Assembly (NCBI GenBank): GCA_951406725.2
Contig: OX597831.1
Span: 56,110,001 to 56,174,000, forward strand
Length of the DNA: 64,000 bases
Source: Octopus vulgaris
Taxonomy: Eukaryota
Direction of reading: 5' to 3'
The translations under genes and the position numbers were made by a program. Positions 1,829-53,856 of this stretch are shown piece by piece. Below the pieces are notes generated by a model that had not been told where the DNA came from, searched no databases, and saw nothing but the letters and a program-made list of their open reading frames with translations. How positions within the stretch are numbered: position 1 is the first letter of the stretch; each line of letters starts with the position of its first letter.

Positions 1829-3499
1829 AAAAAGAAAAGAAAGATACATGCATGTGTATATATCTATCTATTTATATAAACACACATGCGATAATTTGTC
1901 ATAATATACTTCTCTTGCTACTACTTCACCCCCACCCCAATCAGATAACCCCTGGCTCCTATTTGTATTTACATCCTTTTCTTACTATTCTACAGAGGCA
2001 GTCATGCTTTTGCACACTTGGATTAATCTTCAACATTTTCACAGCTTGATTTTTAGGCAGACTCATTCTTAGCTGAAGACTGGTCAGCCCTCCCTATTTA
2101 TTCTTATCTCTTCTCCTCATTGCTTTAATATTTCTTTGATATCTTCTGAGGTTCATACACTCTTTGGGGGTCGCCTTACTGTCTTTTAAGAGGCTGACCA
2201 TTACTTTGTTACATCCCACCATCTCTTTCATCTATGTATCTTCAGTCTTCTCACCTTTCTCCATTTTTTTTTTTTTTTTTTAGGTTTTTGTTCTTCTATA
2301 TATCAAGTGGAGGCACATGGCTTAATGGTTAGAGTGTTGGACTCACAATCATAAAATTGTGATTTCGATTCCTGGACTAGGTGATGCATTGTGTTCTTGA
2401 GCAAAACAGTTCACTTCATGTTGCTCCAGTCCACTCAGCTGTAGAAATGAGTACCACTAGTCTAGGCACATTGCTTAGTGGTTAGGATATTGGATTCATG
2501 ACCGTAAAATTGCGGTTTCAATCCTTGGACCAGGCAATTGAGAAAAACACTTCATTTCATGTTACCCCAGTCCACTCAGCTATAGAAATGAGTTTTGCCA
2601 GGAGAGGGAGGGGCTCCACAAGACTTTCTCACCCTAGATACATTGCATGGCTGTAGTACTCCAACAACTCCCAAGGGATTAAGGGACTTGTAAATATCAC
2701 TCTATTCATGCCCTCCCATACTTCTAACATATTATAGATAGTGTTCTTACTTTTAAGCCTTCTATTACCTACTCTATTACTCTCTTCCTCTACTGTGATG
2801 GGCTTTGTATTTACATTTTTTTTAATTACCTTCAACTGCCAAAATTTTATTTACTTCTAATGATGGTATAAGGTTCCCAACTATTTTTTTCATATGGACC
2901 CCTTTGTTTACTGTTTTATTCTGGTGGACCCCTATAGCTATTTGGTGTCTAAGAACTAATTTTATAGATAGTTCTTTCATATTCTGTTATTCACTCATTC
3001 CCTTATATAGGTTGAACTATGTACAATGTTAGAGAAAGAAACTAATCTGTTTCTTGCAATACATATATGGATGCTTAAAATACTACTGTGGATCTCCAAT
3101 TTAATATTTTGCTATTTAGTATTTTGGCTCCCCACAGAATCTTATATGAACCCCAGTTCAAAATCACTGGTGTAAGTGCTATTATAATTTTAATTTGTGT
3201 TATTGGCATATGCATTCACTAACCCCAATTTACATCATGTATATGTATAAACAATGTATAATACTACACTTACTGATCAACAAGGCCCAGAAACAGCTAT
3301 TAAGAATTTCCCAGATTCTCCTCTCCTTTACCTGTGAGGTTAGAGTAAGAACACTCTGGATATTTACCTGTCTATGGACAAATACAACAAACTTACATTC
3401 TCCTGATTTTCCAGTTAATCTACCTAATTATATTTATACTGTTGTGTCTGGGAAGAGTCATTCTCTTTTAGTGCCTTATAATTTAACACACTCCAGTTT

Positions 3500-4330
3500 T
3501 GTCACACAACATGAAAATTAACATACTGATAGCAGACTTAGTTAGAATAATGAACAACATGTCCCCACTATGCAAACCTCACGAAACGAAGAAACGTGTA
3601 CAGAACTTCATGCATCGCATGCAATTCTCTGGATATGATCAAAAAGATAGGGTTCGAGTATACAGGGGTGCTAGAAAGAAGTTAGATAACATTATGTGTA
3701 ATGATACCAGTGGTACCTGCCCTAGATATAGAAACAAAGACTGGAATAAGATACAAAGAACTTGTGATATAAAGCAAACAGGGTGGTCATGTGGTATAAA
3801 ACCGACAAATATCAAGGAGTGATGTTTGTAGAGGCCACAGCCCATGGAGTACTAGCCCATAGATTTAGGAAAGCTCTGAAGGAAACCAAACTTAACATTA
3901 AGATTGTTGAAAAGCCAAGGAACTCCATCAGATCACAACTATGTAGGACGTACCCCTTTGAGAATACCATATGCACCAATGATAACTGCATGGGACATAG
4001 GATTAGCCCTGGCATTAACTGTAGAACTAGAAATGTAGTTTACAGCATAAGATGCATAGAAGATGCTTGTAAAGACATGAACATCACATACACAGGGGAG
4101 ACATCTAGGAGCATTGTGGAATGACTAAATGAACATTTGAGACAATATGACGACAAAAAACAGTCCTCCATACTCTAACAACATGCCAAGGACCAACATG
4201 GAGGCAACCTGGGTCAACTTGACATCTGCATTTTATCCAAGCACCCAAAGGACCCAACACTCAGACACATACAGGACTACATCCTCATAAAAGAAACATC
4301 CCCAGTACTAAATAGGAAATATACGTAGTA
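3500..4330 (+). mobile_element. Penelope-like element, degraded RT C-terminus and GIY-YIG endonuclease
   Basis: ORFs 3499-3822 and 3783-4124 give C..C...CRTRNVVYSIRC...C...YTGETSRSIVE*LNEH, the PLE GIY-YIG signature, with a frameshift and stops. Confidence 0.88.
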
Positions 4331-6680: not shown

Positions 6681-7439
6681 CAGTGGGGGGAAATAAATAT
6701 TCGTACATGTCAAAATACTTTATTTAATTTCTAATGAACATAAATGGGATATACCAATACTATATATGCATACACATGCATAACCTAAGAATATGCAAAA
6801 GAAACTAATAAATTATAGTAACTAATAAATTTATATACAATTATAAATATTTAGGGGTGAAAAAAGTATTTGTACAGAATAAATTTATGATTTTTTATGC
6901 CACAAAACACTGTTAAAATAATTTTTTTTTTACTAGAATTTTCTCGTTTGTTCCAATAATCTTATCAGTTGTCATTTTTAAGTGTCAAAACACTAGCTTC
7001 TTCATTCAGCATTGAGACAACATAAAGTAGTATCGTAATAATGGCGAAAAGTAAAGAACTCACAAATTCAGTGAAAAACTTAATTATTGAACAGTGGAAA
7101 GCAGGTAAAAGTTACAGGAAAATATCAAAGACCCTTTGTATTCCATTTTCTACCACATCTTCATTTATTCAAAGATATTAAAAAATCGGGAACTGTTGAA
7201 AACAGAATACGATCAGGTGCACCACACAAGATTTCCCCTAGATCTTTAATAAAAATGAAGCGAAGAATCGAAAAAAATGCAATGATCACCAGAAAGGAGT
7301 TGCAAGAAGATTTGTTAGCTTCAGGGACTAGTGTTACACTACGAACAATTAGCAATGAACTTCATAGGAATGAACTGAAATCACTCTCTCCTAGAAAAAC
7401 TCCGCTGTTGACTAAAAGGCATAGAGATGCCCATTTAAA

Positions 7440-7440
<1 letters not shown>
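6681..7440 (+). mobile_element. Tc1-family DNA transposon, left end and frameshifted transposase N-terminus
   Basis: TA|CAGTGGGGGGAAATAAATATTCGTAC terminus with an inner direct repeat at ~6853. ATG 7041 [32 protein letters not shown] continues after a frameshift as [19 protein letters not shown]...[10 protein letters not shown]...[10 protein letters not shown]. Truncated at (TA)n. Confidence 0.9.
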
Positions 7441-7475
<35 letters not shown>

Positions 7476-7535
7476 ATATATACATGTATATATGTGTGTG
7501 TATATATATATATATATATACACATACATATGTAC

Positions 7536-7602
<67 letters not shown>

Positions 7603-7614
7603 GTATATACATGC

Positions 7615-7666
<52 letters not shown>

Positions 7667-7940
7667 CAAAGAAATTCAACACTGTCTGTTTTTATCTTTT
7701 ATTTATATTCTTTATAATATTAATGTAGAATATACAATATATATATATAGTAAAATGAAATGAAGTATTGATTGTCTTATTCAATAGATGAACTATTTAA
7801 TATAAAATATTAAAGGACTAGTATACTTTCTTGCATTATAGAAGTCTTCAAGGTCCCAGGTTGTGAAAGGAGTGTGCAGTCACAACGTGGGACCTTGAAG
7901 ACTGCATATATGGGTACAGGATGTCACCAACAGTGCACAA

Positions 7941-8808
7941 AGTCTGATAAATAAGTATCCTGACTGTTGCCATAGTAACAAAGCTAAAGCACGCAGAGTG
8001 AAGCCACTAGGCAAAGATTGACCTTGACCTCTGCTGTGCATGTGCACTAAGTTTTAACATTCTAGCTTACTTCCGCTGTTTACAGCAGTGCTTCGAAGTA
8101 ATGTGTGATAGTTGCATTGGCCATGACAAAGAAAGTTGTTATGGCGATACCTGCTCAGAAGCCTATGCAAAGTTGCAGAAAGTGAATGGAAAGGAGTGTA
8201 TGAGCCGTGTACAAATGGTTCAAACATTTCCAAGATGGCCGAAAAATGTCGATAGAGACAAACATTCTGGGAGACCTACAACCAGCGGAACTGAGAATAA
8301 CATTGTAGATATGCATGCAGCTGTGATGAGAAATCATCTAATCACCATCCGTGAGTTATCAGAGGATGTGCAGATTAGTTACAGTTCAGTTCAGTCCATT
8401 ATCACTGAAGATTTGAGTATGAGATGCATTTCCGCCAAATTTGTGCCAAAACTGCTTTCAGCTGACCAGAAAGACACTCAGGTTTCAGTTGCACAAAATC
8501 TCCTTGATTGTATTGTGAAGAAAACTTTTTGGAAACTTTGCATAGGCCTCTGAGCAGCTATTACTAAGCTTTTGGCAAAACTTGACACAGATTCTCTGCT
8601 CAACTTTCTCTGCCGTGGTCAATGCAACAAACACATGCTACACACCTTCCTTCTAAGCACTGCTGTAAACAACATAAGTGAGCTAGAACATTAAAACTTA
8701 GTGCACATGCACAACAGAGTTCAAGGTCAATCTGTGCCAAGTGGCTTCACTCTGTGTGCTTTAGCTTCGTTACTATGGTAACAGTTCAGATATTTAGTGA
8801 TTAGACCA
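7941..8808 (+). mobile_element. Internally deleted mariner element with ~150-bp TIRs
   Basis: 7941-8093 is inverted at 8654-8808. Internal ORF 8101-8553 has SGRP...ITIRELSEDVQISYSSVQSIITEDLSMRCISAKFVPKLLS (mariner HTH and WVPHEL-like linker). Confidence 0.88.
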
Positions 8809-21539: not shown

Positions 21540-22410
21540 AGATACCTGTTCATCTGCTGTGACCATGTAGCATGTAGTTGATCAACATGAGCCATCAACC
21601 CAACCAGATCCTTAGAGAAGAGAACACAGTAAGCAGGGCCAACTCAGAAAATCAAGCAACATGACCAATCAGTCTCAGCTGACACTCCTGAATCATATAG
21701 GATGCATCCCAATTTCTGAATAGAATTGTTGTTTAGATACAAAATTCAACCAATGGTAGCCCATAATCCTATGAAACATCCTGGTACTAAATGATTTTAG
21801 GCAGCTTCTAAGGGCCCCAGACTATCCAAGTCTCATAATTATAGAGCAGAACAGGGAGGCCCAGAGACCTCACTGCCAAGATAAGTGAAGCAGTCAACAA
21901 GTTCAACATTCTCACATGCAACACAGACAGACAAGGTAGAGTTCTCCAAGAAGCCAATGAAGGACTGAATCTTTGTCTTGATTCAAGAAAGTTTAAAGCC
22001 AAGTAGTTCCACTTTCTCATTCAGTGAAAGGAGAGCACTCCTTAAGACATCCAGGAACTCTCAGCAAGAATTACTGCATCATCAGCAAAATCTAAGTCTG
22101 TAATCCTAGATTCACCAATGAGTTCACCACAACTCATCTGAACCACTATTTGGCCAAGTACCCAATCCATGCAGGCATTGAACAGAGTGGGAGCCAAGAC
22201 ACAACCCTGATGGACCTCCAGATCTGACTGAGAAAAAGTCAGATGTTGAGCCCCCAATCTGAACCACGGAGATTGTTCTAGTGTGCAAGGTCTCCATTAG
22301 TCCAATCAGTTGAGGAGATATACCTTGCAGCTCCAGAATCATCCAAAGCACATCCCTGTCCACCAAGTCAAATGCTTTGTGGAGGTCAACATTGGCTGCA
22401 AGCAGTCCCT
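21540..22410 (-). mobile_element. RTE-like LINE reverse transcriptase fragment (pseudogenised)
   Basis: VDLHKAFDLVDRDVLW...VHQGCVLAPTLFNACMDWV...DLDFADDAVILAES spans frameshifted ORFs. Confidence 0.88.
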
Positions 22411-22640
22411 GTTCAGAAGCACATATCTTCAAATTTACGAGGAACAAGATTTGGAAATGGCATGATGTTCACACACATGCACGGCTTATCTTTTGCAAGT
22501 CATTAGTGAACATGTCTCTCACTGGTCTTGCTCCAGTTAGGAGATGTGACATATGAAACAAGTAAATGTCTAGTCTTGTCTGTATATACACCTTCAATTG
22601 AGTAGTAGAAAATATTACTGTCAGTACATTATCTACATTA

Positions 22641-27929: not shown

Positions 27930-28780
27930 TTCATCCTGTAAGATATTCGAATTTTGGTGAGATTTCCTGTTTGACTGTTGATGACCCAACTACGCACAGG
28001 TTACACATGAATATTAGTCGCCTATCTGAACAGATTCATTTTCAAAATAAGACAAATGAAAGGCGTGACAACTACAGGCATTTCCATTAGTGACGTAAAT
28101 AAAACAAATGATTATAACCGGATATCAAATGTGGTCTTGAATGGAAAGCTAACTATACTTTCATATTACACGCGGTAATAGTTAATGAAAGAGACTATTG
28201 TGGCGTCGGGGGGAAAAATCAGTAAAATCTATCAGCTGTCCGTTTATTAAGTATCCACGTCACTGACAACAAACATACTTTGACCTTTTGTTACTTTAAT
28301 TCGTACTCACACTACAACTCACTTCTATTACAATTAACGAAGGGAGGCGAGAGCGTTTAAGTAGTTTTCAAAAATTATTTATAATTTTGAATTTTTTTCT
28401 GATTAATAGTCGCGAAAATAATAAGGAACATTTAAAAAAAAATTATATTAACATTCAGAAAAGAAATTAACGAAATATAATTGGTTTAGATTAACGATTG
28501 ATATAGTTCCAAACTAACATTTACTAGCTTTGCAGTTTTCGTCGAGATGTCGCGATTTTCATGAGTTGTAGTTAGCATTGTTCCGAATGAAATTAATCTT
28601 TCTTTGAATTCCTATTGAAAATATTCACACTGAGACATTAAAATCGAAATGGCACGACATCGAAGTGTAAGGACGATGAACTATGAAGACGGTAAGTTGT
28701 GGATTCAAGATCCAGTTTTGTTTCTGTCATCATTACTACACAGCGCGAACCTTGCGACATGAAAACTGTTCACTGGCTAT
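27930..28780 (+). promoter_or_regulatory. HBS1L promoter / 5' UTR region (CpG-retaining)
   Basis: High CpG density in otherwise CpG-depleted DNA. CRE-like TGACGTAA (~28091) and CACGTCA (~28256). TCGCGA at 28410 and 28550. Lies directly before the ATG. Confidence 0.6.
28649..28691 (+). CDS. HBS1L: HBS1-like protein, coding exon 1 (MARHRSVRTMNYED)
   Basis: ATG at 28649 in a CpG-rich region. The translation closely matches the conserved HBS1L start (human MARHRNVRGYNYDED, from memory). The 43-nt exon ends G|GTAAGT, a canonical phase-1 donor. Confidence 0.93.
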
Positions 28781-36439: not shown

Positions 36440-36517
36440 AGTTTTTTGATGACGATGATGTTGAAGATTGTTATGGCCAGTCATTTGATGATAAATATTG
36501 CATCTCTCCTGGAACTG
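36440..36517 (+). CDS. HBS1L: HBS1L coding exon 2 (EFFDDDDVEDCYGQSFDDKYCISPGT)
   Basis: ttttaatttctaattccag acceptor and G|GTATG donor. 78 nt, in frame with exon 1. Matches the HBS1L YGQSxxDxYCISPxT motif. Confidence 0.93.
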
Positions 36518-40090: not shown

Positions 40091-40240
40091 TGGCCCAGTT
40101 CACATTTCCCAGGAAGTCCAATCTTGACCTTGGTTCTTACATTAGTAGTGATTCTCCATCAAATGTGGAACCACCAATCATTACCCCAGATTCACCAAAA
40201 TGTTCTTCCAAGAAAGTGACATACAATAGTTTTGATGAAG
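40091..40240 (+). CDS. HBS1L: HBS1L coding exon 3 (VAQFTFPRKSNLDLGSYI...NSFDE)
   Basis: ttactttcag acceptor and G|GTAAG donor. 150 nt, open frame. AQF continues the conserved SPxTAAQF motif. Confidence 0.88.
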
Positions 40241-42306: not shown

Positions 42307-42441
42307 CTCGTTTAAACCACTGTTTGGATAAGATTCACGAGGTGCTTGGGGACATTCATCAAGATGATATCCTTGTGGAGTGCATTAAAAGGCATAACTA
42401 TGATACAGAAGCTGCTTTAAATGAATTGCTTGCCACACCAG
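42307..42441 (+). CDS. HBS1L: HBS1L coding exon 4, HBS1 N-terminal helical domain (ARLNHCLDKIHEVLGDIHQDDILVECIKRHNYDTEAALNELLATP)
   Basis: ttttattcag acceptor and G|GTAATG donor. 135 nt. Resembles the HBS1_N domain (human ARLYSCLDHMREVLGD...FDVQKAL). Confidence 0.93.
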
Positions 42442-44130: not shown

Positions 44131-44178
44131 GTGCACCAAAACCACAGAGACGACCCAGAGAGGGACGTAAATCACTAG
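44131..44178 (+). CDS. HBS1L: HBS1L probable coding exon 5, 48-nt basic mini-exon (GAPKPQRRPREGRKSL)
   Basis: attgtttcag acceptor and G|GTGAAT donor. Phase 1-1 and in frame. GC- and CpG-rich compared with the surrounding intron. Confidence 0.75.
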   Translation: MHQNHRDDPERDVNH

Positions 44179-48896: not shown

Positions 48897-49085
48897 TTCT
48901 AACGAGAGCCTTTCTTTTTTTTTCTTTTTTTTTTTCTTCTTTTCTTTCATGACATCTCCCTCTTGTCTCCTACTTCTACCATTTAAAATTTTTGGTAATG
49001 TGTGGAATATGCTGCCATCGTCTGGTTTCTGATTGGTTGAAACTTCTGCTCCTACTACTTCATATTAATTTTTGGCTTTTGTAAG
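48897..49085 (+). promoter_or_regulatory. Candidate distant branch point, polypyrimidine tract and AG-exclusion zone for the alternative exon
   Basis: TTCTAAC at 48897-48903, a ~40-nt T/C tract from 48909, and no AG dinucleotide from 48909 to 49083. Confidence 0.5.
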
Positions 49086-49111
49086 GTAAGACTTTTCTCT
49101 ATGTGAATTAG

Positions 49112-50892
49112 ATGATAGTTTTTGTAATCAAAATTACTGTACAAGTCCTACAGATTGTAATCAGTTTTCAGACAGGAATTTTCAAACATTTGCATGTCGA
49201 AGAATGAATAGTGTAGGAGATGAGGAATGCTCTTCATATGAAAGTGCAATTTCAGACAACTTTGAAGTTGAGATCTTTCAGCGAAAAACCTCTGAAAGTG
49301 AAGATAGTCAAGAAGATCAGCTAGTATCATTAGATCAGAAAATGAGTAAGAATTCCATTCAAGAAGAGAATCAGGAAAGTTGTTTACTGCCTTCTAATCA
49401 TACAATGGAAGGTGATTTTGAGACACACGGGGTTGGGAATTCGTCACCCTCACTTTGTCAGAAGCTTTCAACTGATAGCAACACTGCTGCAGTAAGTAGT
49501 GTAACAAAGCCAAAATTAAAAAATGGATCTAATAAGCAGGAACTTATGAATTTGTTTGAAAAAGCAAAAAAGAATAAAGAACAAATGGAAAAAGATGCCA
49601 AATTTTCGTCTGTCAATAAATTTGGTCATTCTTTGTCTGATGGAATTGAAAAAAATACATGGCTAGAAGATTGTGAAGACAGTTCTGATATTGGAGATAA
49701 ACCAATTAGCTTGTCTTCGTTGATTAAACAGGAAAGTGGTTTTAAGTCTTCACTTGGTGATCTTGATAATCAGAGATACAAGAAGACAAATGATGATAAA
49801 CAATGTATAAAAGATCCACCTAAAGATAAATGTAGTTGTGCTGAAACCTGTCCACAAGAAACTTGTGAAAACTGTTCCAAAAATAGAAAATTTCCTCCCA
49901 AGAACACAGATAAGACAAGTTTAGCTGACTTAACAAAAACCCGTTTTAAGCTTGATTCAGATGTTTCCCTGTTTGATACTGAACCGGTGAAGAAAGACAA
50001 AAAACTTAAAACTTCACAAAAACAAACTCAGAAACCGATTCAGTTTTCTTCAGATATTTCAAAAAGTAGTTTTGCAAAAACATTTGATTTTTCGAGACCA
50101 TCTAAAAATAAGAGTGCCTCTAAACATCTTGAGTTGCTTAAGAATACATCTGAGAAGAATCCCTTGCAAAATCCAAAGGAGATTTGCTCAAATATAAATA
50201 GTTCACCTCCTCCTCAAACTGTTACGGGATTTTCATTGTGTGATCTCACTAATCATAAATTTTCTACTTTTCCTAAGAAAGAAAATGACACTACTTTCCC
50301 TTCTCACCTCAATGACTCTAAATACAATCTAGAAGTTAATGAGGAAGAAGAACTCAAAGAATCATCATTCAAAGATGACGACTGTTTGGATTCTGCATTT
50401 TCTCTAGGAAGTTTGATTAGTCAAGTAAACCTTGAACTTAGCCCCAAGTCTGATTACATTACTGAAAATAGGCTTGAAGATTTATGCAAGAAACCTAAGG
50501 AAACTAAGCCCAATCCAGAAAGCACTCCAGTTCACAAAACTAATAATGATAATCCTAGTTGTTCCCAGAAAGAAAACAACACATATTTAACTAAAGAACA
50601 TCCTGATGTGCAAATCCAGAAAACTGCATTCAAAGAGCCTGTTTCCTTATTTGGAAAAGTAATTTCCTACAGAGCACAGAAGTGTTCCAGCAATTCTACA
50701 AAGAAGCTGAAATATCCAAAATTTTCATATAAGGTGCAAATGAATGGAATATCTACAAACTGGGAGTCAACTTTATTCCATCATATCACACCATTTGATT
50801 TCTCTACACCATCACCAGATGATGTTGTAAAAACACGACAGAAGCAAGCCTATCACCATCGAGCGCCAATTGCAGTTGAAGCAAATAGCTGA
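49112..50892 (+). CDS. HBS1L: HBS1L alternative terminal exon encoding a SKI7-like (HBS1LV3-type) exosome-adaptor C-terminus; 5' boundary uncertain (in-frame phase-1 acceptors give starts at 49091, 49112, 49154 or 49172)
   Basis: The frame is open from 49090 to TGA 50892 and includes the 562-aa ORF 49204-50892. The sequence is S/K/D/E-rich and low complexity. It ends with PVSLFGKVI...KFSYKVQ...ITPFDFSTPSPDDVVKTRQKQAY, collinear with the Ski7-like motifs of the short HBS1L isoform. Phase is compatible with exons 4 and 5. Confidence 0.9.
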
Positions 50893-51041
50893 TAAAAATT
50901 TGAATGGTTTCTATTCATGTTATTTTCTGTTTGTTACTGAGAAAGTCCGTTTTAATTTAAATCACATGCATAAAGCCCTGTCATATTTGTAAATACTTTA
51001 CTTTTATATTTTTTTATTTAACTACACCACCGTAATTTTTT

Positions 51042-51051
51042 AATAAATAAA
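51042..51051 (+). terminator. Candidate polyadenylation signal (overlapping AATAAA) for the short SKI7-like isoform
   Basis: taataaataaaa about 150 nt after the stop at 50892. A further AATAAA lies at 51462. Confidence 0.6.
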
Positions 51052-53856
51052 AAAAAATTCTCATGATGTTATTGCATTTAGCACTGAGAGGTTATCTGGG
51101 GGACCAAATATTTGATTTAATCGCTTTTTGTATGTTTGAAATTAACCAACAATAACACACACACACAATCACTCTCTCTCTCTCTCTCTCTCTCTAATGA
51201 AACTGAATTAAATAGAAGTGTATTTTGTTCTGATGTAGAACGTTTCTTGAGAGATATGCACAGACATATATTTTATACTGTTCAATAATTTTAAAATTTC
51301 CATTTAATTATAGTTCTAATTATTTATTGGCATATTTTTATACTTTCATCATTTTCATGGTCACACTAATTTCATCCAAAATTGTTTAACCCTCCAAAGA
51401 GTTATAACTTGTTAATGAATGGTGGCTTGGGGGAATCATTCAACTTAGTTACTTGTTCATGAATAAAGTCTTAATTGTGATACTTTTTTCTTCAGTTTAC
51501 TTATATTTTTTTTTCTTCATATCACTTACTATAAAATATGGTAGACATCAATGACTACACCTAGTTTAGTTCTTTTTATAGATCTACTTCAGAGAATGGT
51601 GCTAGGCATTTAAAATCTTAGAAATAACCCAACATAATATTTATACCATAATTCAGTCCAGTGGGAAATTCATTGCATACTCTGTTGTCCAGTGTAAAGA
51701 ATCCTATGTGGACGTGTTCCATCCATTTTATTGCTTAACTTGACTAAGTATGTCCTGGGATTTAGGTGGTTATTGCAGCAGAGATGATCAAAAGGAATAC
51801 ACTAGACGTGTTATTGTCCGTATTATTCAATATTTATAAAACAATAGTACTGGTGGCATGCAAAAAGCACCTTTGCCACTATGCAAAGTGGTTGACATTA
51901 GTAAGGGCATCTAGCCATTAAAACCATGCCAAAACAGACCTTGCCAGTGCTGGTGTCATGTAAAAAGCACTCGTTCCACTCTTGTTAAGTGGTTGGTATT
52001 GGAAAGGGCATCCAGCTTTAAAAACCATGCCAAAACAGAGAGTGAAGCCTGGTGCCGTCTTCTGGCTTGCCAGCATGCAAAACAGACATTAAATGATGAT
52101 GAATAGCAACAAAAGCAGTATTAATACTAACAGGTAATAATGTGGGTGTTTTATTGTCGACAAACGATAACCATCGGCTACAGTTGCCACACCGTCAATG
52201 ATATAAACACAAGTGATTTTATGCACCATGAGTCCATGTGAGAGATCCTCTCATGGTAAGCAACATGGTATTTTGTGTTCTAACACAATACTTACATTAT
52301 GTGGGAGATAAGCATTACCTTTCAGTATTTATTGTTGAAGATAAGAGGGTGAGATGGTAAAATGCCTAGCAGCATTTCATTCATTTTTTCATCCTATGTT
52401 CAAATTCTGCCACGGTCAACTTTGCCTTTCATCCTTTCGGGGTAAATAAAGTAAGTACCAGTTAATCACTGGGATTGTTGTAATCAACTATTCTCCTCTC
52501 CAGAATTGCTGGCCTTGTGCCAAAATTTGAAACCAACATTGTTGAAAATTAACAGTTCAGCTTAAAATTTTAAGCCAGAAAAGAAAACAAATATTACAAC
52601 TGTGATGTCTCATTCACCATGCAACCATAAGTTTATGATTGTTGCTTCTGACTTTATCCGTGTACATTCTAACAATAAATAGTTTGTTGTATCAAATACA
52701 ATCAAGTTCATACCCCATGTGTATCTAATCTTATCAGAAATCGTGTGCTATTGTCCTAAAGTTTGTTTCCTTTAGACTTTCTAACTTGGAAAGCAATGCA
52801 CTTCATCTTAGTAACAAGAAATCATCCCAACATTTGGTCATAAATAAGGCTCAGTCTTTGGATAACATCAATAATTCATGAAAATAATCCACTCTGTTTT
52901 TGAAATGCCTACAGATTGTCTTTCATACTAGTTTCTGAAAGCTACACTTTTTACTTTGCTCTTTTGTTTGCCAGTTCAAAATTTTACTAACTTATCTTCA
53001 TCTAGTCTCATTTCATTCAATTCTTTAGTGATATACATTTTCACGTTTTATCATCATTGTTTTGACATCTGTTTTTCTCTGCTGTCATAATGGAATGGAG
53101 TTGCAGACATGTTAACGATTGGTTAAGTGGACTTCCTTGCTTCTTTGAGATCAACTGTCCAATAAGGCTATTGTTCACAAAAGTATGCAAAAAAAAAAAA
53201 TTCAGTTCTGAGTTATCTCTACTTTGACACTTGAAGTCTTGTACTGTAAATAACAACAATTGTCATCGTATCCTAAGTTGCACATTTAAATAATGTCATT
53301 GTTTGGGAGGCTGAAAAAAAGTTTAGCCTCATTTTTAGAAAGAATTGACTGTTGAAAGACTTCTTGTTTACACCATATACATTTGTATTTTTGTTCAGTG
53401 AATTTTTTCATGTTCTTTTTTCTTTCTTAATTCAGTTTTTGAGTATCAAAAAGTGAATGTGGAGGCACATGGCTTAGTGGTTAGGGTGTTAGACTCATGA
53501 CTGTAAGATTGTAGTTTTGATTCCAGGACCAGGCAATGCATTGTGTCCGTGAGCTAATCCACTCAGCTAGCAAGAATAAGTAATATGGTGAAGTTGCAAC
53601 AGGCCTGGCAAGCCAGCAATGGATAGTGGATCTGCCTAAAAACAAATAGAAGGTAACTTCTGGACTGGCAGGCCATAGGCCTATCATGGTGTTGGATATT
53701 ACCTTTCACCAAAAATTGAATCATGGTAGATACTACCTTAAATAGTGAGTTAGAATTCAGTGATATCATTAATTATTTAATTAGGGAAAGAGAGCTTGGA
53801 CTTGGAAGAAGATAATCAGTAATGTTTCAACTGTTCTGACTGGAATTTATATGTAG

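Follow-up and report, generated by a model that had tools for sequence, protein, structure and literature searches.

An alternative terminal exon of the Octopus vulgaris HBS1L gene and its likely role as the counterpart of human SKI7

Organization of the HBS1L locus and its terminal exon

The window, a 64,000-nucleotide stretch of Octopus vulgaris DNA (contig OX597831.1, positions 56,110,001 to 56,174,000), contains the N-terminal exons of HBS1L and, beyond them, a large terminal exon (Table 1). Five HBS1L N-terminal exons had been claimed in an earlier note made from the sequence, and they were found with GT donors, CAG acceptors and HBS1_N homology. The HBS1 N-terminus assembled from them matches mammalian HBS1L in PDB 5LZW with an E value of 1e-19. 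Elsewhere in the window lies a Tc1/Tc3-type transposase fragment (7084-7728; Pfam HTH_Tnp_Tc3_2, E 3e-12). Three further frames, at 3487-4124, 8011-8553 and 22124-22468, presumably derive from decayed mobile-element proteins, and none of them gave a Pfam match at E 0.001.

Table 1. Features of the shared exons, the SKI7-specific terminal exon and its acceptor (window coordinates)
Feature	Position	Strand	Basis or remark
Coding exon 1, start codon, HBS1 N-terminus, common to both isoforms	28649..28691	+	Sequence and homology only
Shared exon 2	36440..36517	+	Joined to exon 3 in 4/4 runs
Shared exon 3	40091..40240	+	Joined to exon 4 in 4/4 runs
Shared exon 4, core of Pfam HBS1_N	42307..42441	+	Reads, Pfam
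Shared exon 5; donor GTGAAT is the fork between isoforms	44131..44178	+	Contig ends, junction contigs
Predicted distant branch point CTAAC (48899), pyrimidine tract, 175-nt AG-free stretch	48899..49083	+	Predicted from the bare sequence
Tandem acceptor GTAAG GTAAG	49084..49091	+	First AG (49084-85) unused; second AG (49089-90) used
SKI7-specific terminal exon, coding part	49091..50892	+	Residues 152-751 and stop; frame, reads
SLSSLI, copy 1, like human SKI3-docking helix (putative role)	49708..49725	+	Sequence motif
SLADLT, copy 2 (putative role)	49918..49935	+	Sequence motif
SLCDLT, copy 3 (putative role)	50233..50250	+	Sequence motif
SLGSLI, copy 4 (putative role), nearest the exosome-binding end	50401..50418	+	Sequence motif
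SKI7-like motif PVSLFGKVI	50638..50664	+	Corresponds to human helix 555-572, which sits in the RRP43/MTR3 cleft; retains Ser and Phe, lacks Arg
PKFSYKVQ, putative second exosome patch	50716..50739	+	Counterpart of human loop 582-593
ITPFDFSTPSPDDVVKTRQKQAY, Patch-4-like PFDF..SPDD motif and following helix	50785..50853	+	Human equivalents contact CSL4 and SKI2
3' UTR, end provisional	50893..51467	+	AATAAA at 51042 and 51462; contigs to 51432

Splicing was read from the assembled contigs of sequencing runs. Twenty-three runs were listed, 20 contained the stretch and six were examined; none is catalogued as RNA, so that the label RNA-like is a guess, for which the GT..AG joints argue. Exons 2-3-4-5 were joined with GT..AG ends in four of four runs, from four studies. 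The shared contig ended exactly at 44178 in X1, X4 and X8, as expected at a fork, and that of X13 continued 2.7 kb past exon 4, outside the window. Contigs of X1, X8 and X15 started at 49089 and carried 28 loose bases identical to the end of exon 5 (a single match, at 44149), and the DNA-like run X18 crossed the acceptor site unspliced (48952-50210). These contigs place the junction at 44178>49091, in three of three RNA-like runs from three studies. Spliced reads that link the HBS1L exons to the terminal exon had been set in advance as a check, and this junction provides them. The acceptors 49154 and 49172 are in frame, yet both were absent from the contigs of the three RNA-like runs, and a coding form from acceptor 49086 was rejected, its frame stopping after 159 aa. 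Contig depth was rejected as a measure of isoform share.

The terminal exon lies in a stop-free frame of 600 codons (49090-50889), which ends at a TGA (50890-50892). When the bases of the window were shuffled 30 times, no frame exceeded 165 codons. The spliced product has 751 aa and no internal stop, and it differs from O. sinensis XP_029645643.1 at seven positions (744/751 identical); three Octopus proteins keep this frame open over its 600 codons. A Pfam search of the exon product matched no GTPase family, in agreement with the earlier reading that the exon is free of GTPase motifs, and no other Pfam family passed the cut-off either. The exon had been described as about 1.75 kb long with its own stop; exon and stop hold, and the coding part measures 1802 nt. 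Its product had been put at about 724-751 aa, of which the 751-aa form stands with acceptor 49091, and the 724-aa option has no contig in the three RNA-like runs. The SKI7-type C-terminus is a single copy in the genome assembly (G000). A separate SKI7 paralogue was considered and ruled out, since only this one C-terminus match exists there.

At the 3' end, contigs stopped at 51041 (X8) and 51057 (X4), at an A-run. Others reached 51146 (X1, X13) and resumed at 51204-51432 (X4, X13), and an X15 contig extended 290 bases beyond 51140. The AATAAA that had been assigned to the exon is present at 51042. The 3' end that had been placed near 51.06 kb lacks confirmation, because contigs run past this signal, and the AATAAA at 51462 fits better as the candidate. 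Low-depth contigs continue to about 53 kb.

GTPase exons further on in the same gene, another check set in advance, were searched for in 150 kb of the assembly beyond the window, exon by exon, with the O. bimaculoides GTPase isoform as query. Eleven of the 12 expected exons were found, all in order on the + strand; in numbering continued from the window they span 105790 to about 131850, with exon 6 at G000:C18:56215790. They lie 55-81 kb beyond the terminal exon, and the intron from exon 5 to exon 6 is 61.6 kb long. Judged from the sequence, the same gene likely also splices exon 5 onto these exons, giving HBS1L. The remaining exon, coding for residues 356-392 with motifs G2 and G3, was absent from the 935-base intron at G000:C18:56222205-56223139 (L005:8205-9139), and it was found neither in the 244 kb around nor elsewhere in the assembly. 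The genome search for it returned only two paralogous exons (57-59%), which resemble EF1A and eRF3. The G2/G3 piece is present in the O. sinensis and O. bimaculoides proteins. The O. vulgaris gene model CAI9736214.1, which may not be independent, is without the same piece, and skipping the exon would shift the frame. The simplest reading is a likely loss from the assembly, and the absent exon thus flags a probable assembly fault in a housekeeping gene.

The C-terminus and its homology to human SKI7

The C-terminal 104 residues align with human 'isoform 2 of HBS1-like protein', chain E of the exosome-ribosome structure PDB 9G8M, at E 4e-7, the only match to E 10 among 177,635 sequences. When a profile of 13 relatives was used, human SKI7 was matched at E 2.4e-18 and yeast Ski7 faintly at E 0.6. 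The alignment of the C-terminus to human SKI7, also set as a check beforehand, was thus obtained both with the single sequence and with the profile. A query of the ESM Atlas with the C-terminal 111 residues gave no usable match. A search of 1.8 billion representatives returned 66 matches, 58 of them with a PFDF-type motif near the end; the other eight, seven of which are long repetitive proteins, were dropped. None of the 58 relatives has a GTPase, and nine have an HBS1 N-terminus.

Three exosome-binding elements are described for human SKI7, namely the helix 555-572, the loop 582-593 and a CSL4 patch at 602-616 with a helix that touches SKI2 (PMC11540850). In 56 aligned rows, the octopus protein keeps every invariant position of the three human exosome patches. 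In exon numbering, F571, S575, P576, D577, D578 and Q584 are shared with all 56 relatives, and S519, Q550 and A587 with 55 of them. S519, F521, G522, I525, F545, Y547 and Q550 agree with the family columns, which form an S-h-F-[GA]-x-h-[LI] core and an F-x-Y-x-x-Q patch. PVSLFGKVI and ITPFDFSTPSPDDVVKTRQKQAY were both confirmed at the positions given by the earlier note. The same note had linked PFDFxxPSPDD to exosome binding. The motif is present, but its part in binding was overstated: human co-IP found PFDF to be the minor exosome contact and the upstream helix to be essential, the PFDF fragment alone staying unbound (PMC5389692).

In the upstream helix, a triple mutation of the human RxxxFxxxL motif largely abolished exosome binding in cells (PMC5389692). 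At this strict site (559/563/567) the octopus has Pro, Phe and Ile; the Arg is absent, and the next Pro is replaced by Val. Against the SKI7-like consensus of PMC6143672, the octopus sequence matches at S, h, F and h and mismatches at A, + and P, and the same source reports that the strict motif is not universal. At the position of human R559, Arg is found in nine and Lys in 15 of the 56 relatives, and the Ser two residues on is kept in 55 of 56. A basic residue thus occurs in only 24 of 56, and therefore the Arg does not define the animal SKI7 family. The closest C-terminus relatives outside Octopus (P0182 and P0184, 49-51% identity) read Pro/Ala-Ser-Leu/Met-Phe-Gly and likewise have no Arg; they possibly come from other cephalopods.

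On the exosome side, the RRP43 residues that are modelled as gripping the SKI7 helix (PMC5389692), Y13, F17 and E31, are all kept in octopus. Complex prediction with octopus RRP43 and SKI7 residues 656-712 scored 0.00 in two alignment-free runs, which speaks neither for nor against the contact. One large exon codes for about 240 of the 278 residues of octopus RRP43/EXOSC8 (L022:1165-1941, - strand, G000:C12), and an RRP46-like sequence (L023:1468-2127) likewise lies within one open frame.

The repeated motif of the middle region and the acceptor at 49091

The middle 350 residues gave no confident alignment to human SKI7, so a SKI3 site in the octopus protein would have to be read from a short motif. 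Human L454 and I458 belong to S-L-S-E-L-I, at 89-94 of chain 9G8M_E, with R559 and F563 used to check the offset. The pattern [ST]LxxL[AITV] occurs four times in the octopus exon (at S358, S428, S533 and S589 of the 751 residues) versus 0.1 times in shuffles; it is found in 3-14 copies in 12 of 12 SKI7-type proteins and in none of 10 GTPase isoforms. Because this pattern had been chosen after viewing the sequences, all 24,004 three-letter gapped patterns were scored in six lineages, and the top-scoring ones were all parts of S-L-x-D-L-A-K. A wider set was also scored, with six proteins omitted as too short; of the 52 that could be tested, 49 had at least two copies (median 5), and 47 beat their shuffles at 5 of 500 or fewer. 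These proteins are related to one another and do not count as independent samples. The middle of human SKI7 also holds several looser copies.

Human SKI3 docking depends mainly on one helix, and a second predicted helix added little (PMC11540850), which speaks against a role at several sites. SLGSLI would be the best candidate for the SKI3 contact among the four octopus copies. It is conceivable, and we put it forward only tentatively, that the animal SKI7 'insert of unknown function' is an array of SKI3-docking helices, which would number four in octopus and as many as 14 in bivalves. If so, SKI complexes would be bound at more than one site of an invertebrate SKI7 at the same time, and the number of helicase complexes within reach of one exosome would be tuned by the motif's copy number. 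A literature search, largely of open-access papers, found nothing on a repeated motif in the SKI7 middle, and the motif offers a testable idea for this unexplained region.

The acceptor of the terminal exon has an unusual layout. Among 12,671 AG-to-AG gaps counted over 214 kb, only nine reach the length of its 175-nt AG-free stretch, and at 13 other acceptors of the gene the AG-free length was 21-109 (two acceptors were left out of this comparison, the script having chosen the wrong AG). A distant branch point of this kind has been linked to alternative exons (PMC1431707). The isoform switch would lie at this acceptor. Where the weak, distant-branch-point acceptor 49091 is used, the transcript would end at the SKI7 exon. 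Where it is passed over, exon 5 would join exon 6, 61.6 kb on, and the Pelota-partner GTPase HBS1L would result.

The tandem arrangement raises the question of a ratchet. Both acceptors read AAG, and the first AG after the AG-free stretch adjoins a donor-like GTAAGA, the same hexamer as in the exon 3 donor. Exon 5 might then be spliced to the first AG, and the recreated donor AG|GTAAGA might re-splice to exon 6 to give HBS1L; choosing the second AG, five bases further, would destroy the recreated donor and commit the transcript to SKI7. The great length of the intron speaks for such a ratchet, as does the juxtaposition of acceptor and donor by which ratchet points are defined (PMC8605326). Against it, none of the three RNA-like runs has a contig joining exon 5 to 49086, although contigs drop rare forms. 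AGGTRAG occurs eight times in the same intron, and a plain five-base duplication of GTAAG suffices to explain the tandem acceptor. The only other DNA with which the acceptor was compared, X18, is about 99% alike. We therefore consider the ratchet very unlikely. A literature search on recursive splicing of HBS1L found nothing relevant.

Interpretation and comparison with known SKI7 systems

Together with the five HBS1L exons, the terminal exon very probably encodes a 751-residue octopus counterpart of human SKI7 (HBS1LV3), an adaptor in cytoplasmic RNA decay, which is likely to bridge the SKI helicase complex and the RNA exosome. By analogy with the human structure, the last ~90 residues would wrap around the exosome, at the RRP43/MTR3 cleft, the RRP45 tail and CSL4, and would touch SKI2. 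Human work further suggests that at least one S-L-x-x-L helix of the unstructured middle would dock on SKI3 within the open SKI238 complex, and that the shared N-terminus would bind the 40S subunit. SKI2 would then pull the mRNA from a stalled ribosome and feed it to the exosome (PMC11540850). The proposal that one gene serves two mRNA-surveillance pathways is supported by the junction, by the downstream GTPase exons and by the C-terminal homology to human SKI7.

Two other explanations have to be weighed against this reading. The protein may be a true SKI7 orthologue that works as a weak or one-sided adaptor, binding the exosome through its PFDF end only or needing an extra bridge to SKI3; the main effect of the exon would then be to divert transcripts from HBS1L. 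Such a view could draw on the replaced Arg and Pro of the essential helix, on the failure of the human PFDF fragment alone to bind in co-IP (PMC5389692) and on the unalignable middle. However, 32 of the 56 relatives are likewise without the basic residue, and the octopus protein keeps the Ser, the Phe, the Gly and the hydrophobic end of the helix. The zebrafish PFDF peptide pulled down seven of ten exosome core subunits (PMC7924785), and the frame has stayed open across the three Octopus proteins, so that a weak adaptor appears unlikely.

The second explanation is that an HBS1L intron contains a single-exon gene in its own right, or a frame that is open by chance. Some assembled proteins (P0003) do begin at the first Met within the exon, but these internal starts arise because contigs break at the fork. 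The in-frame splice to exon 5 in three of three runs refutes a single-exon gene as the main form, and 600 codons against at most 165 in the shuffles speak against a chance frame. This explanation is thus extremely improbable, and the reading of the exon as the SKI7-specific end of an HBS1L isoform is preferred.

The exon had been called hidden, which did not stand: in both O. sinensis and O. bimaculoides, RefSeq already models the SKI7 form at the HBS1L locus, where it is isoform X1 and stands next to an 'HBS1-like protein isoform X2'. It had also been feared that automated annotation would miscall the exon as an uncharacterised single-exon gene; the protein was indeed left 'uncharacterized', but RefSeq models a spliced isoform. 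Paired isoforms, with HBS1_N alone or with HBS1_N and GTPase, are recorded in Octopus and also in scallops and clams (Mizuhopecten, Ylistrum, Mercenaria and Ruditapes). The earlier note was not aware of a description of the arrangement in cephalopods; our literature search found no Ski7 paper for octopus or cephalopods, with the reservation that supplementary species lists may hold Octopus, whereas SKI7-like proteins from molluscs have already been published (PMC6143672). The present analysis allows an octopus protein labelled 'uncharacterized' to be named and assigned a likely function. It extends the design of one gene for two surveillance factors to cephalopods with read support, and leaves the known mechanism unchanged. 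A knockout of the SKI7 exon would be possible without touching HBS1L, as in zebrafish.

The one-gene arrangement of SKI7 and HBS1L is established in plants. It is also established in human (PMC5389692, PMC4942675), zebrafish (PMC7924785) and fungi (PMC3597508). The octopus gene resembles that of human SKI7 (HBS1LV3/HBS1L3) in its shared N-terminus, its large GTPase-less alternative last exon and the GTPase exons beyond. The two proteins also share three exosome patches in the same C-terminal order and an S-L-x-x-L-I motif like the SKI3-docking helix. In contrast, the octopus protein is longer (751 aa, human 632), its gene shares five coding exons where the human gene shares four, the Arg of R559 is missing, and four regular motif copies stand in its middle. 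For zebrafish Ski7, exosome binding and a role in the egg have been shown (PMC7924785), whereas the octopus protein is known from sequence and contigs; the Ski7 alignment list of that study names Aplysia and Lingula and no cephalopod. The invertebrate SKI7-like proteins of PMC6143672 have the same two motifs as the octopus protein, and its main text does not name Octopus, though the supplement may list it. The RefSeq entries XP_029645643.1 (O. sinensis) and XP_014788281.1 (O. bimaculoides), both named 'uncharacterized protein', represent the same spliced isoform as the one described here.
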